Positions 30,001 through 42,000 of a stretch of DNA of 64,000 nucleotides are shown here, piece by piece. Position 1 is the first letter of the stretch, and each line of letters starts with the position of its first letter. The DNA comes from an uncultured beta proteobacterium (GTDB lineage Bacteria; Pseudomonadota; Gammaproteobacteria; Burkholderiales; Eutrophovitaceae), in the NCBI GenBank assembly GCA_963792855.1, contig CAWBXZ010000003.1:207608-271607 (forward strand). The letters run 5' to 3'. The position numbers were made by a program.

Positions 30001-33000
30001 CTGCGATCGCGCGCAAACACACGGCACCTGCACGGTCACCATCGCCCGCGGGCATCACATTGCCTGCCTCGCCGCCTATCTGAGACGCGCCACCGACCGC
30101 GGACTGGTGGCGCTGGTCATTTCCTCGGCACCGGAAAATCATTCGGTGGCGCCACACGGCGGTCGCGCCGGCGTCATCACGCCCAATCCGATTGCCGCCG
30201 GCTGGCCTACCACAGGCGACCCGGTAATGATCGACGTGTCGATGTCGATCACCACCAACGGCATGGTCGGCCGCCTCTCCAGGGAAGGCGGACGATTGCC
30301 GGGCAAATGGCTCATCGATGCCGACGGCAACCCGACTGACGATCCCACGGTTGTGTCGAGCGAGCCGCCCGGTGCGCTGCTTCCGATCGGCGGAATAGAG
30401 TATGGCCACAAAGGCTACGCGCTGGGGTTGCTGGTCGAAGCGCTCACCATGGGCCTGTGCGGTCACGGCCGCGCGGACCCGATCGAGGGCTGGAGCGGGG
30501 AAGTCTTCGTCCAGGTCCTGAACCCGGCACTGTTCGGTGGCCGCGATGCCTTTCTGAAACAAACCACGTGGGTGGCCGATGCCTGCCGTGCGACACCACC
30601 GCGCCCGGGCGTGGAGCGCGTGCGTCTTCCCGGAGAAGCGGGGCTGCGCCGTCGCGAGAAGCAATTGCGCGACGGCGTCACGTTGTACCCGTCGATCATG
30701 CCGGCGCTGACGCCCTTTGCAAAACGCTTCGACGTCGCCCTCCCGCAAGCGCTCGCATGAACCCCACGCACGCGCGCCAACGCGCGTTACTGCTCATGGT
30801 GGGCGCAACACTGTGCTGGTCCAGCGCAGGAGTGCTGGTGCGCAATATGCAGGTGACGGATAGTTGGGAAATCACCTTCTGGCGCTCGGTCTTCATGGTG
30901 CTGTTTCTCGGCGGCTGGCTATGGCAACAACACCGCGGCAAAACATGGCGAAGAATACGCGCTGTCGGCACCCCCGGCATGGTGTCGGGCGCCCTGTTTA
31001 CCATCATGTTCGTCGGTTTCATCTTTGCGATGGCGCACACGACTGTGGCCAACACCCTCATCGTCATCAGTAGCGCGCCGTTTTTTGCTGCATTGTTCGG
31101 CTGGCTGTTTCTACGCGAGCGGGTCGCGCTGCGCACGTGGCTGACCATGCTGGCGGCATTTCTCGGCATCGTTGTCATGTTCGTTGGTGCCGCGTCACAT
31201 GACCGCTGGATCGGAGCAGTGGTCGCACTGGCGGTCCCGGTCGCCTATGGCCTCAACGTTTGCCTGCTCAGACGCATGCACGCCACGGTAGACATGATTC
31301 CGGCCATTCTGGTCGCCGGCGTCGTTTCGGCCGCACTTACCCTGCCCCTCGCTTCGCCATTTACAGTCAGCGGCCGCGACCTCGTTCTGCTTGCCATCAT
31401 GGGTGCAGTCCAGCTCGGGCTCGGTTGCGTATTGTTAATGATCGCATCGCGCACGCTGGCGGCGGCGGAGATTGGCCTGGTGTCGATACTCGAGACCATT
31501 TTCGGTACCTTGTCGGTGTGGGCGCTGGTAGGCGAGCGGCCAAGCGATGCGGCTCTCATTGGCGGGGCCATCGTCATCGCCGCACTGACGGCCAATCAGT
31601 TGCTCGCACTGCGCAAACACAAGGGCGTCGCGCCCGCCGTCATAACCTGAGGAAATGAACATGAGCAAACCTGCAGATCTGACCGAGCGGCTGGAAAAAC
31701 TGTATACAGGAGCGGTGCACGATGTGCTGCGCGCCATGGGGCATGGCAACTGTGTGCTGCCGAACGAGATCAAGTCACTCGATCCGGCCAGAAAACTGGC
31801 GGGTGAAATCTACACCGTCAGCGGCCATATCGATCAGTCTCGCGACCCGCATGACACACTGGTGCAATGGACCGGTCTGCTATCAGCCGCACCGCCGGGA
31901 AAAGTCCTGGTATGCCAGCCGAATACCCACATGGTGGCGCTGATGGGCGAGTTGTCGGCGGAGACCCTGCACTACAAGAAAGTCCGCGGCTATGTCGTCG
32001 ACGGCGGATGCCGCGACACGGAGTTCATCCTGAAGATCGGATTTCCGGTGTTCTGCAGTTTCACCACGCCCGCCGACATCGTTGCGCGCTGGGTTCCGGA
32101 CCGCTTCGGAGAACCGGTAACCATCGGCACCGTTACCATCAGAACCGGCGACTACATTCTGGGGGACCGCGACGGGCTGGTCGTGCTGCCGGCGGAAATC
32201 GCAGCCGATGTCGTCAGTCGAACCGAGGAAGTGGTTTCGACCGAAAACAGGGTGCGAACGGCCATACTCGACGGCATGGACCCGCAGCAGGCCTACCTGA
32301 AATTCGGCAAGTTCTGATGCCGCCGCGAGTGCATCTGACCGTTTACCGGCGCGGAGCGTCGCAACCCTCCGCGCACCGGCAGGCAAGTCCGGGGGCAACG
32401 AGGAAAGACTGGCGCAAGATGGCCTGATTTTCAGGGGATAAGCCCCGTAATGTTCGTGAGTCGCTTAGATATCAATAGCATATGGCCTGACACTTGCACG
32501 CAGATAATGCCTCGGAGGGCCGCCGACGCCCCGCCCGCAACAGACCCGGCCTGAGCAGGAGGAAAAACCATGTCGACCAACCCTTACGCAGCGCCCACGA
32601 CCCACGTTGCCGATGTTCCCGAACCGGCTCGCCAGGGAAACTTCATCGCCGAGGGCCGCTCCCGGCCGGCCGGCAACGGATGGGACTGGATCAAATCGGC
32701 GAGAGAACTCACCAAATCGCGTGTCTGGTTATGGATGGGCGTATTCATCATCTTTTTCATCATCGGTGCCGGAACCAGCGCGATTCCGGTGATTGGCCCT
32801 GTGGCGATGTATTTCGTCATGCCAGTGCTGATCGGCGGCGTCATGCTCGCCTGCGACAAGGCATTCATGGGGGAAGAAATCACTTTTGGCGATTTTTTCG
32901 CGGGCTTCCGTACCCGCTTCGCCAGGCTCGCCGGCGTGGGACTGGCGACCCTGCTCCTTTATCTGGTCATCTTCGCAGTCATCGCGGCGATATTCGGCTC

Positions 33001-39000: not shown

Positions 39001-42000
39001 GCACACGCTCGCCGCATGGCAGTGCCCGCAGCGGCGCGCCAGGTGCCGGGTTCACTGCCACTGGGTGCCGCCGGCGAGGTGTCGATCCGGCTCGAGAACC
39101 CGGCAGCGCGCGCATTGCGCGTCGACGTGTACGACTGGCATCCGCCTCAACTCGACGCCGACGGACTGCCGCAATCGGTGACGCTGCCGGCCCGGGGCTG
39201 GTCCGAACTGAAATACCGGATTCGCCCGCTTGAACGCGGCGACATCGAATTCGGACCGGTGCAATTGCGCATTGCTTCACTGTTTGGTTTGTGGCGCGTT
39301 CAGCGCCTCGCCGGCAAGGCACAAACCGTTCGCGTCTATCCCGATTTTGCACGGCTCGCCGGCTTCGCCCTTATGGCAACCGATCATCATCTCTCGCAGA
39401 TCGGCGTGCTGCAGCGCCGGCGCCGCGGCGAAGGTCTGGATTTCCATCAGTTGCGCGAATACCGTGAAGGCGACGCACAACGGCAGATCGACTGGAAGGC
39501 CAGTGCCCGAATGCAAAAAATGATTTCACGCGAATATCAGGACGAACGCGATCAACAAATCGTGATGCTTCTCGATTGCGGGCGGCGCATGGTAGCGCGC
39601 GATGATGCAATCTCCCACTTCGACCACGTCGTCAACGCGGCCCTGCTGCTTGCCTACGTCGGGCTGCGCCAGGGGGACGCGGTGGGTCTGCTCACCATGT
39701 CCGGCCCGGCACGCTGGCTGTCGCCGCGCAAATCGCGCGCTACGGTGAACACCATCCTCAATGGTGTCTACGACCTGCAACCGACAGTTGCCGCGAGCGA
39801 CTACCGTCTTGCCGCTCTCGATCTGATGCAGCGGGTACGAAAGCGCGCACTGGTTGTCGTGCTCTCCAATCTTCGCGACGAGGATGACGGCACGCTCTCC
39901 CCCGCGCTCAAACTGCTTCAATCGCGCCATCTGGTAATGTTCGCCTCGCTGCGCGAAAGCATTCTCTCCCGGGCGCTCGAAACCCGTGTCGACAATTTCG
40001 ACCGCGCCATCACGCACGCGGCCGTCGCCGATTACCTTCACAGCCGCAGGCGCATGTTCAACCGCCTCGAGGGAATGGGCGCAATGTGCGTCGATGTCGA
40101 ACCCGCGCAATTACCCATCGCCCTCGTCAACAGTTACTTGCAAATAAAGCGCAGCGGCCGGCTCTGACGCCAACTTTTGACCGGCATCAACACGCCCCGT
40201 CCTCCCTTCCGGGAAAATGAAAAGCGTCATCTGGAGGGGTTTCAAAATGAGGTTCTTTGAACGATTCGCGATCGCGGTAGCGATGCTGGTGTTTGTTCCT
40301 GCGGCTCTGGCCGACAAATTCGATACGTGCCCGGACCCGGAAGCCGCCAGAAAGTTTGTAAAAGCATGCATGCAGGAAAATCCGTACAACACGAAGGAAG
40401 CGTGCGAAGAGCGTGCGCTGCAGAAGTTGTGCAGCGGTAACTGACAGGCTAACGCGGGCTGCTGGTGCCCGGGATGTTCAGGCTTCTGATGAGCGTGTCG
40501 ACAGGGTCGGCGGCCGTACGACCCTGTTCCGAAATCCTCGCGCATGGATCTTCGGTAGCTTCCAGTTTCCGGAGGAAATTCGTCGCCAACAGTGACAGTC
40601 CGGCGGTTGCCCATGCCGCACCGCCCTTGAACAACACGCCACCGGTATCAAGCCCGACCCTGGGTTTATCCAGGGTGCCGCCAATAGTCGCAAATTCGCT
40701 TGCAAGGTCAAGTACGCTCAGGCTCAGAAACTTACGCTGTACCGCCTTGAAGCCGAAAAGAATCTCTCTTGTGACAAGATTGACCGCACCGCTGCCAAAA
40801 ATATCGAGGCGCTTGAATCGCAGCACGATTCCGTCGGACGAGCTCGCCACGCCGTCCGCGACATCGAAATGCGCCGCTGCACACTCCAGCGAAGAATAGT
40901 CTTCCGGCTTTCTGCCGGGCAGGAGAGTCGTGAGCAAATCCGACGAAACAGCTTGTAACGCAAACGGTGTTTCGTTTTTGCCTACGCGTCCTGGTCCCGC
41001 TGTCGCCAGAAGCTCGCCTTTTGCAGACTTGAAAACCTGACGCGGTGTTTCACCAATGCCGGCAAAACGCGCAGTTGCCGATATGCGCGGCCTGTCCTCC
41101 CGCGAGGAAGCCATCTCCGCCGGCTTGAGCGATTCGATGTCGAGATCTTTCGTTTCCATCCTTGTCGATACCACTGCAGAGTCGGCGCGCGCGTCAAACT
41201 GCAGGCCGACAGACGTCTTTCCTTCGGCAATCGATGCCGCCAGATCAAGTCGTCCGCTTTCAAGTTCGGCCCGCAGGACAAAATCATTCAGGTCCAGTTG
41301 CGGCCCAACCAGACGACGTGCCTGCAAACCCACCATGGCATCGATTGCTCTGGCGGCGGCCAGATCGAAGGGTTCGTCCAGTCTCCCCCCGCCCTCGTCA
41401 ACTGCCACGTTCGAATTATCGGGCAGCTTGTCTTGTTCTTCGCGCAGCCATGGCGTGAGGTCGATCATCTCGCCCGACAGGTCGACGGCAAGCTTGACCC
41501 GGTCCTTGCGCTGCAGGTGAATACTGCCCGACAAATCCGTCTCACCCGCACGCAGCTTGACTCGGTCCAGCAAAATGACATCGGCGTCGATACGTGCCTT
41601 GGCGCTCGCCACGAGTGGAATATCCGGCAGCGGCGACTCCTCGGTCAACAAGGGTAACCGCGCCAGGCTCTTGACGCTCACGTCAATGTCCAGTGGTGTC
41701 CGCGCAGCGTCGCGCAGTTCAACGATGGTGCCCGCGACGATGGCGCGCCCGTTCGGCGTGCGGATTTCCACGCGAACCGGCACGTCACGCCCGCTGCGCA
41801 AAGGCCCCAATGCGCTCCCGGCGAAGACCCGCACCGATTGCTTTCGGACGACCGTGTTGAGCTCAGCAGTCAACTTCGGCCACGCCTGCTGGTTCTCCAG
41901 CAACTCGCCCAACGCACCGCCGCGCGCCGACAGCGTTAGCGGGAATTTGCCGTAGCGAGCCTGCATCTCGGCATACACCGGGACATCCGGACTGGCAACA

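Follow-up and report, generated by a model that had tools for sequence, protein, structure and literature searches.

A conserved MoxR-DUF58 gene module with four families of membrane proteins in an uncultured Burkholderiales bacterium

In a stretch of 64,000 nucleotides (nt) from an uncultured beta proteobacterium of the Burkholderiales family Eutrophovitaceae (GenBank assembly GCA_963792855.1, contig CAWBXZ010000003.1, positions 207,608 to 271,607 of the forward strand; this whole stretch is called the window below), seven open reading frames (ORFs) lie side by side on the plus strand at 32570-40167. They encode, in this order, proteins of the BPSS1780, RDD, SpoIIM, DUF4129, DUF4350, MoxR and DUF58 families, as had been proposed by a reading made from the sequence alone (hereafter the sequence-only reading) and as Pfam and NCBIfam searches confirmed for all seven genes and their labels. 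That reading took the seven genes as one unit; we find instead a conserved core of six, from RDD to DUF58, with the BPSS1780-family gene as an accessory, judging from its distribution. The co-conservation of these six genes is strong, and it is highly probable that they constitute a single conserved functional module.

Conservation of the six-gene core

The evidence for the module comes from loci anchored on the SpoIIM-like protein, for which phmmer found relatives in 3834 protein clusters among 1.84 billion cluster representatives (E <= 1e-3). A motif-anchored scan that covered each GTDB species with one genome gave at least 585 species with a SpoIIM-like relative, and the best 80 loci, among them Burkholderiales, Lysobacter, Thiothrix, Pseudomonas/Stutzerimonas, Microbulbifer and Cellvibrio, were fetched and used to build hidden Markov models of the families. 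Sixty of these species-level loci, from Beta- and Gammaproteobacteria, have enough flanking sequence to be eligible for comparison: all six genes are present in 54 of them, every one colinear and on one strand, and the adjacency of MoxR and DUF58 is likewise kept in 54 of the 60. The genes are, in other words, co-conserved outside this genome. Of the five core boundaries, four have a 4-nt overlap as their most frequent junction (RDD/SpoIIM in 52/76, DUF4129/DUF4350 in 54/74, DUF4350/MoxR in 42/69 and MoxR/DUF58 in 28/62), and at the fifth, SpoIIM/DUF4129, the junctions in other species are of -11, -14 or -4 nt. Since the same 4-nt overlaps recur across species, the packing of the genes exceeds what would be expected by chance. 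The BPSS1780-family gene is found in 26 of the 80 loci, 23 times upstream, directly before RDD, and three times downstream or on the other strand; its placement varies also in Catenovulum, where the families are linked as well. A gene of the AsmA family adjoins the cluster in ~12/80 loci and was rejected as a functional partner on this count, its adjacency being lineage-specific and without functional weight. No other gene is conserved around the core in the 80 loci, and neither enzyme nor cargo nor secreted protein figures among the neighbours.

The sequence-only reading had noted that this association recurs in Proteobacteria and Actinobacteria, which is borne out not only by the 54 loci but also by Rhizobium, Nocardia, Nonomuraea and mycobacteria (PMC8191103). 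On Rhizobium plasmids the order is DUF4129-like (a protein of only 255 aa), DUF4350, MoxR, DUF58, SpoIIM and RDD; in Nocardia and Nonomuraea, DUF4350-MoxR-DUF58 stands beside a divergent SpoIIM/RDD pair; and in Prevotella, RDD and SpoIIM are followed by two unannotated ORFs and by DUF4350, MoxR and DUF58. The hhalign comparison of the gene 4 (DUF4129) family with the two Prevotella ORFs that occupy its position was non-significant, and tblastn of DUF4350 against plasmids gave no match. The mycobacterial cluster, Rv3689-Rv3695 in M. tuberculosis, has adjoining genes for DUF4350 (Rv3691), MoxR (moxR2 = Rv3692), DUF58 (Rv3693), SpoIIM (Rv3694c) and RDD (Rv3695), plus membrane proteins, an adjacency that follows from an annotation table of M. 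chelonae, M. abscessus and M. tuberculosis orthologues in which the counterparts are MAB_0386c-0392c and, in M. chelonae, BB28_RS01875-01900 (PMC8191103). This cluster shares its arrangement with the loci of Nocardia and Nonomuraea and is, like that of the window, uncharacterised; it differs from the latter in having SpoIIM on the opposite strand and DUF4350-MoxR-DUF58 first, while the identity of the SpoIIM-like proteins is only ~26-28% and no BPSS1780 gene is reported there. Both Rv3694c and Rv3695 were recovered in a membrane pull-down of the divisome-associated protein Rv0954 of M. tuberculosis (PMC8093794), a weak hint; such experimental hints come from mycobacteria only.

Gene fusions and gene splits add to this picture. 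RDD-SpoIIM fusion proteins of ~546-578 aa from several lineages (P0345, P0391, P0401, P0470 and P0499, as well as P0335, P0348, P0363 and P0386) form at least five clusters at 50% identity, one of which has 85 members, and they include a RefSeq protein of Bordetella genomosp. 13; by the logic of Rosetta-stone evidence, these natural fusions suggest that RDD and SpoIIM act together. The DUF4129 protein, for its part, is encoded by two consecutive genes in two of the loci, L020 (9965-11492) and L065 (2264-3714), one for the N-terminal membrane domain and one for a C-terminal transmembrane (TM) segment and the DUF4129 domain; in L065 the two overlap by 4 nt. Given these split genes and the short Rhizobium form, gene 4 of the window looks like a two-module protein.

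Gene layout and subunit anatomy

A 252-nt intergenic stretch (32318-32569) precedes gene 1 and presumably holds the promoter; at its end lies a strong Shine-Dalgarno sequence, AGGAGG at 32557..32562, 7 nt 5' of the ATG, and scans of this leader for promoters and Rfam families gave neither a match to the sigma-70 consensus nor one to Rfam. Gene 1 (32570..33355; this and the following genes are all on the plus strand) encodes a polytopic membrane protein of 261 aa with ~5 predicted TM segments, matched by NCBIfam BPSS1780_fam (NF041043, 191.4 bits against a cut-off of 90) and by Pfam DUF7847. Gene 2 (33366..34049, GTG start, 227 aa) codes for the RDD membrane protein (PF06271, 63.8 bits), which has ~3 TM segments and a soluble C-terminal domain of 95 aa, with R26, D33, K85, R112 and R136-L-G-D139 as conserved residues. 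The SpoIIM-family protein of gene 3 (34046..35032, 328 aa; PF01944, 121.1 bits, cut-off 26.9) combines an N-terminal four-helix domain, assigned to DUF8413 from precomputed PF28475 matches on SpoIIM-like homologues, with six TM helices; its AlphaFold2 (AF2) model has a predicted local distance difference test (pLDDT) score of 93.6, and its invariant residues are Y175, N179, N204, H231, E235, E290, W293 and S294, with invariant polar residues lying inside predicted TM helices.

Gene 4 (35022..36516) and gene 5 (36513..37740) are interrupted in the window, as discussed below, and have ~492-497 and ~408 aa, respectively, once repaired. The former, delimited by Pfam and tblastn, is a membrane protein with a C-terminal DUF4129 domain (PF13559), which scores 42.8 bits on the product of 35737-36516 (cut-off 24.8) and 30.5 bits on the intact homologue P0122. 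In the AF2 model of P0122 (pLDDT 77.5), residues 10-260 form a well-defined helical membrane domain and the C-terminus a bundle of helices, while two acidic loops are predicted poorly. Even at E <= 10, the N-terminal 270 aa of gene 4 have no Pfam match outside DUF4129, and no Transglut_core; Foldseek searches of the PDB with the SpoIIM-like and DUF4129 models gave no match at E <= 1e-3, the DUF4129 domain showing only a weak, local similarity to HEPN-like four-helix folds. The product of gene 5 (PF14258, 67.9 bits, cut-off 30.4) consists of an N-terminal TM segment, a large domain, another hydrophobic segment and a tail in which R290, R302, R303 and H308 are conserved, without a conserved Cys-His-Glu triad. 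Its large domain, for which a relationship to GldG and to flavodoxin-like folds has been described (Makarova et al. 2015, PMC5898192), would be periplasmic and its Arg-rich tail cytoplasmic, whereas from hydropathy and charge the other conserved soluble pieces of the cluster, including the vWA-like domain of DUF58, would face the cytoplasm, as MoxR does. By hydropathy scan, TM segments are predicted in six of the seven products (a hairpin in DUF58 and segments in five others), not in the four that the sequence-only reading had counted. Exact-match look-ups of the window's own proteins gave no records.

MoxR is by far the most conserved subunit. At the start of its gene lies an exact 18-bp tandem duplication, atgaatgacacaacccgg, present in two copies at 37798-37833 (plus strand), which creates two in-frame MNDTTR starts: the product has 324 aa from the second ATG (37816..38790) and 330 aa if the start is at 37798. 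Relatives have a single copy of the repeat and a product of 324 aa, as in the homologue of L001, one of the closest relatives. These are uncultured Burkholderiales metagenome contigs whose SpoIIM-like proteins are 86% (L001-L004) or 90% (L005) identical to that of the window. The ATPase belongs to AAA_3 (PF07726, 217.4 bits, cut-off 27) with an AAA lid (AAA_lid_2, PF17863, 75.8 bits), and its nearest relative in the PDB is the uncharacterised 2R44 (E = 3.8e-76). All its catalytic motifs are present, namely Walker A GVPGLGKT, Walker B LLLADE and the sensor and arginine residues (TQN, R172 and R257), with a conservation of 93% or more across 47 sequences. Gene 7 (38860..40167, 435 aa) encodes the DUF58 protein (PF01882, 97.3 bits, cut-off 23.4; VWA_2 scores 22.8 bits, under its cut-off of 27), in which the predicted N-terminal TM hairpin is followed by a vWA-like domain with DCGRR in place of the DxSxS of the metal ion-dependent adhesion site (MIDAS); LLDCGRRM is the consensus across 58 DUF58 orthologues. 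No solved relative of this protein was found by sequence search. The partnership of MoxR with a degenerate vWA protein, as the sequence-only reading had it, thus agrees with both this motif and the adjacency of the two genes.

The junctions noted at 34046-34049, 35022-35032 and 36513-36516 are all present. The outer two are ATGA overlaps, with the ATG of SpoIIM on the stop of RDD and the ATG of DUF4350 on the stop of gene 4, and the middle one is an 11-nt overlap of the SpoIIM stop with a GTG at 35022. We take this GTG as the start of gene 4 because the N-terminus is conserved in 70 homologues (consensus MxLERxAV, the window counterpart being (M)QLERMTV) and because of the comparable SpoIIM/DUF4129 junctions in other species; the ATG at 35037, which would leave no overlap and is the start called in L001 and L005, was rejected since MxLER is kept upstream of it. 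Tight packing thus holds for these three junctions, but not for the DUF4350/MoxR and MoxR/DUF58 boundaries, where the window has gaps of 57-75 nt and 69 nt and no overlap. Beyond DUF58 lies the convergent AsmA-family gene (40449-44207, 1252 aa), on the opposite strand as described before but not immediately downstream, for a small plus-strand ORF intervenes at 40247..40444, 80 nt 3' of DUF58. This ORF, whose product of 65 aa has four Cys and a signal peptide, corresponds to a called 67-aa gene in L001-L003 and has no counterpart among the 80 species-level loci; it is possibly a lineage-specific eighth gene.

Frameshifts in genes 4 and 5

Genes 4 and 5 are not single ORFs, as the sequence-only reading had taken them to be, each being split by a 1-nt insertion. 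Gene 4 is read at 35022-35837 in frame 0 and at 35629/35737-36516 in frame 1, with a +1 shift near 35631; gene 5 is read at 36513-36944 in frame 0 and at 36583-37740 in frame 1, with a +1 shift near 36609. DNA alignment with L005 and L001 places one added base at 35629..35632 (TTGAC[G]CGAAGCA, plus strand) and another at 36606..36612 (CCGAT[A]TCAG, plus strand). A one-base deletion gives back an ORF of 492 aa in gene 4, and the deletion of any single base in 36604-36613 one of 408 aa in gene 5. In tblastn, aa 1-199 of the intact homologues of gene 4 match one frame and aa 198-492 the following one, the switch falling at ~35632-35636, and DUF4350 homologues switch frame at ~36600-36650. The closest relatives have intact ORFs in the same gene order, of 489-492 aa for DUF4129 and 407 aa for DUF4350. 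The stoichiometric co-expression that had been deduced from the junctions cannot, with two genes frameshifted, hold for the sequence as written; moreover, since the reading of gene 4 ends at the stop at 35837, the ATGA coupling at 36513 could not work as written. The gene call of the public assembly is already a truncated fragment of 259 aa (P0121), and so the lesion is present in the deposited sequence.

What do these breaks represent? Programmed +1 frameshifting at both sites was rejected, as the relatives lack the added base and have uninterrupted ORFs, and neither site has a zero-frame stop or a slippery motif. A decaying set of pseudogenes, in which both insertions would be real mutations and the system would be non-functional in this genome, is a possibility of some standing, although we rather doubt it. 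It agrees with two uncompensated 1-nt insertions in adjoining genes that are intact in relatives, with the truncated gene call and with the location of the insertions outside long homopolymers. Other genes of the window are frameshifted too, however. Compared with L001, two genes at 25050-27300 (minus strand) have uncompensated indels, the dmpG-like (HMGL-like) gene +1 at 25903 and the dmpF-like (acetaldehyde dehydrogenase) gene +2 at 26295, the first ~70 codons of the latter being scrambled by several indels (27065-27260); a TcA-like gene is split into two plus-strand ORFs, 15066-21434 and 21086-24745, which overlap by ~350 nt in differing frames and probably reflect a further frameshift. Eight neighbouring genes of the window are free of such breaks. 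In a related metagenome-assembled genome (L006; GCA_942492245.1, CALODZ010000027.1), which has this cluster too, many gene calls are split or fused (MoxR of 179 + 160 aa, SpoIIM of 205 aa, DUF58 of 177 aa), a sign that assemblies of this clade are rich in indels. The ratio of nonsynonymous to synonymous substitution rates (dN/dS) on the branch of the window itself is 0.19 for DUF4129 and 0.33 for DUF4350, near that of the intact relative and not above it. Pseudogenisation specific to this operon is therefore unsupported, there being frameshifts elsewhere in the window and no sign of long relaxation in dN/dS; for the same two reasons we conclude that the breaks in genes 4 and 5 are due to assembly indel errors or to very recent mutation, not to long-standing decay.

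The TcA-like gene belongs to an ~18-kb plus-strand block (window 7160-24745) that encodes a set resembling Tc (ABC) toxin complexes and is absent from L001-L004, where the dmpG-like gene directly follows the CoxE-like gene. The block comprises a TcB-like ORF (7160-10657) with SpvB and TcdB mid domains, an ORF of 1146 aa (11564-15004) without Pfam matches and the TcA-like gene, with VRP1, ABC_toxin_N, neuraminidase-like and TcA_TcB_BD domains. At its right edge (24753-24965, minus strand) lies a fragment of 71 aa that shares 73% identity with the C-terminal end of the RraA-like protein, the intact gene for which is at 31655-32317; the fragment looks like the scar of the rearrangement or insertion.

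Proposed mechanism and alternatives

How would the six core proteins work together? The answer we prefer, while holding it as tentative and with less than even confidence, is that the module forms an inner-membrane complex with a dedicated AAA+ motor, in which a MoxR hexamer anchored by DUF58 remodels or assembles a complex of four proteins. RDD, the SpoIIM-like protein and the DUF4129 protein would make up a polytopic membrane core, to which DUF4350 would contribute the sole large periplasmic domain, GldG-like and non-catalytic, along with its Arg-rich cytoplasmic tail. DUF58 would be a metal-independent adaptor, tethered by its TM hairpin and exposing a MIDAS-less vWA/Ig module to the cytoplasm, where MoxR would form its usual hexamer. 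Through this adaptor the MoxR ring may be docked on those parts of the membrane subunits that face the cytoplasm, for which the four-helix domain of DUF4129, the N-terminal bundle of SpoIIM, the C-terminal domain of RDD and the tail of DUF4350 are candidates, and ATP hydrolysis would then drive a conformational remodelling or assembly step in the membrane complex. The purpose is likely to be maintenance of the envelope or membrane and not metal-cofactor insertion. Precedent exists in MoxR-vWA pairs that are established as remodellers, such as NorQD and RavA-ViaA among others.

Several points weigh against such a complex. The interaction of the seven products is predicted from sequence and context, and their topology from a hydropathy scan and AF2 helices only; neither AF2 model has a relative in the PDB, hence the folds give no functional clue. 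Three loci (L020, L047 and L055) keep RDD-SpoIIM-DUF4129 without adjoining MoxR and DUF58, so the membrane part may work without the motor or may use one encoded elsewhere. With two broken genes, the copy in the window may itself be non-functional. RNA-seq of M. chelonae shows the whole block shifting together by log2 -6 to -9 (PMC8191103); we have down-weighted this co-change as functional evidence, because a contiguous block of this magnitude could be a deletion instead of regulation.

Among other functions, we regard as unlikely that the cluster would be a secretion or surface-assembly apparatus, by analogy with archaeal systems; the complex would export or assemble some component of the envelope, with the GldG-like domain of DUF4350 facing outward. 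MoxR ATPases are not known to act as translocases, no conserved cargo accompanies the cluster in the 80 loci and the small secreted ORF beyond DUF58 is limited to close relatives; on the other hand, a large periplasmic domain is predicted for DUF4350 alone among the subunits. A neighbourhood of DUF4350, MoxR and vWA has been predicted to be a "novel secretion system or membrane remodeling complex", and a COG0714 ATPase and a vWA protein were noted as neighbours of SpoIIM homologues in bacteria (Makarova et al. 2015, PMC5898192). The archaeal arCOG01314 module shares with our cluster the membrane-anchored DUF4350 protein, the COG0714 MoxR and the vWA protein, as well as the prediction of a membrane complex, but has S-layer-like and immunoglobulin (Ig)-like partners that differ from the bacterial ones, while RDD, SpoIIM and DUF4129 fall outside its description (PMC5898192). 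More speculative still, and in our estimate quite improbable, is that the RDD and SpoIIM-like pair, at times one fused polypeptide, with its invariant intramembrane His, Glu and Asn residues and a fold without a solved relative, would be the catalytic or translocating centre of a new class of apparatus for envelope remodelling or export, which MoxR and DUF58 would gate or reset. The ancient six-gene module, common to Pseudomonadota, Actinomycetota and Bacteroidota and with a related module in Archaea, would then be an undescribed AAA+-powered inner-membrane machine and not a chaperone for a known enzyme.

We give slightly less credit to membrane-proximal proteolysis or quality control, in which DUF58 would recruit substrates, MoxR unfold them and a membrane subunit, the SpoIIM-like protein, cleave them, even if the invariant intramembrane residues H231, E235, E290, N179 and N204 would suit such a role. 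The C-terminal DUF4129 of gene 4 is a domain that Pfam defines on TgpA-type proteins, which end in it likewise. The same logic of recruitment, unfolding and cleavage was proposed for the three-gene MoxR-vWA-YebA/TgpA operon (TgpA is PA2873 in P. aeruginosa), with which the cluster shares MoxR, a DUF58-type vWA protein and a polytopic membrane protein (Zhang & Aravind 2012, PMC3495828). That operon is without RDD, SpoIIM-like and DUF4350 proteins, whereas Pfam searches detected no transglutaminase core, and no peptidase domain either, in the seven proteins of the cluster, and the structure search gave no match to a known intramembrane protease. B. subtilis SpoIIM, of the SpoIID/M/P engulfment machine and the same Pfam family, is described as a scaffold and not as an enzyme (cited in PMC5898192). 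The protein of the window, from a betaproteobacterium, differs from it in the added N-terminal DUF8413 and in its linkage, sometimes fusion, to RDD, and no SpoIID- or SpoIIP-like protein occurs among the seven products or conserved neighbours.

Very unlikely, in our judgement, is a cofactor-insertion chaperone, in which by analogy MoxR and DUF58 would mature an unlinked metalloenzyme and the membrane proteins would be mere anchors or regulators. This is the best-established role of MoxR-vWA pairs, as in the NorQD papers, and the window does contain, as the sequence-only reading had pointed out, a second MoxR module with CoxD/CoxE-like genes (~4776-7020, plus strand). NorQ/NorD, CoxD/CoxE, RavA/ViaA and CbbQ/CbbO share with our cluster a MoxR AAA+ hexamer and an adjacently encoded vWA adaptor; their vWA partners, however, are soluble, with a functional MIDAS and a defined enzyme target, whereas the DUF58 protein is membrane-anchored and MIDAS-less, with no linked client enzyme. 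Metal delivery is disfavoured because DCGRR replaces the MIDAS across the orthologous group, and cofactor insertion as a whole because, in addition, the 80 species have no conserved enzyme gene next to the cluster and the CoxD/CoxE-like pair is very different: its ATPase is only ~28% identical to MoxR and belongs to a Pfam family other than AAA_3, with NCBIfam MadB_ATPase as best match (274 bits, under the cut-off of 475), and its partner matches VWA_CoxE with 225 bits. Bat (Bacteroides aerotolerance) operons, reportedly of the order MoxR-DUF58-BatA-E and of the MRP subfamily of Snider and Houry, 2006, resemble the module in having an AAA_3/MRP-type MoxR with DUF58 right after it, membrane proteins and a biochemical role that is likewise unassigned, but our cluster has no BatA/BatB membrane vWA and no TPR domains in any of its proteins. 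An anti-phage or other conflict system of the MoxR-vWA type is hardly credible here. Ternary systems of this kind were proposed as conflict systems (Kaur et al. 2020), and MoxR has a weak match to Pfam bpMoxR (41.7 bits); yet the PADLOC matches of MoxR were limited to generic P-loop ones (E >= 8e-5) and the six remaining proteins had none, and the cluster occupies a stable syntenic chromosomal site among housekeeping genes, with no effector-like domain.

Few AAA+ families are as poorly understood as the MoxR ATPases, a client being known for only a few of them, such as NorQ, CoxD, RavA and CbbQ. In agreement with the sequence-only reading, full-text literature searches found no paper that gives a biochemical role or function for the whole cluster, even if it is already recognisable from databases and from partial in silico accounts (PMC5898192, PMC3495828). 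Coming from an uncultured Burkholderiales lineage and with a frameshifted copy, the window itself gives little experimental leverage; cultured carriers of the module are found in Variovorax, Ramlibacter, Bordetella genomosp. 13, Stutzerimonas, Pseudomonas citronellolis, Lysobacter, Rhizobium and mycobacteria. The module is one of the most widespread contexts of MoxR, present also in M. tuberculosis, and couples this ATPase to four families of membrane proteins without assigned function. Once solved, its function would assign five families now at the level of "DUF" and would extend the mechanistic range of MoxR-vWA systems.

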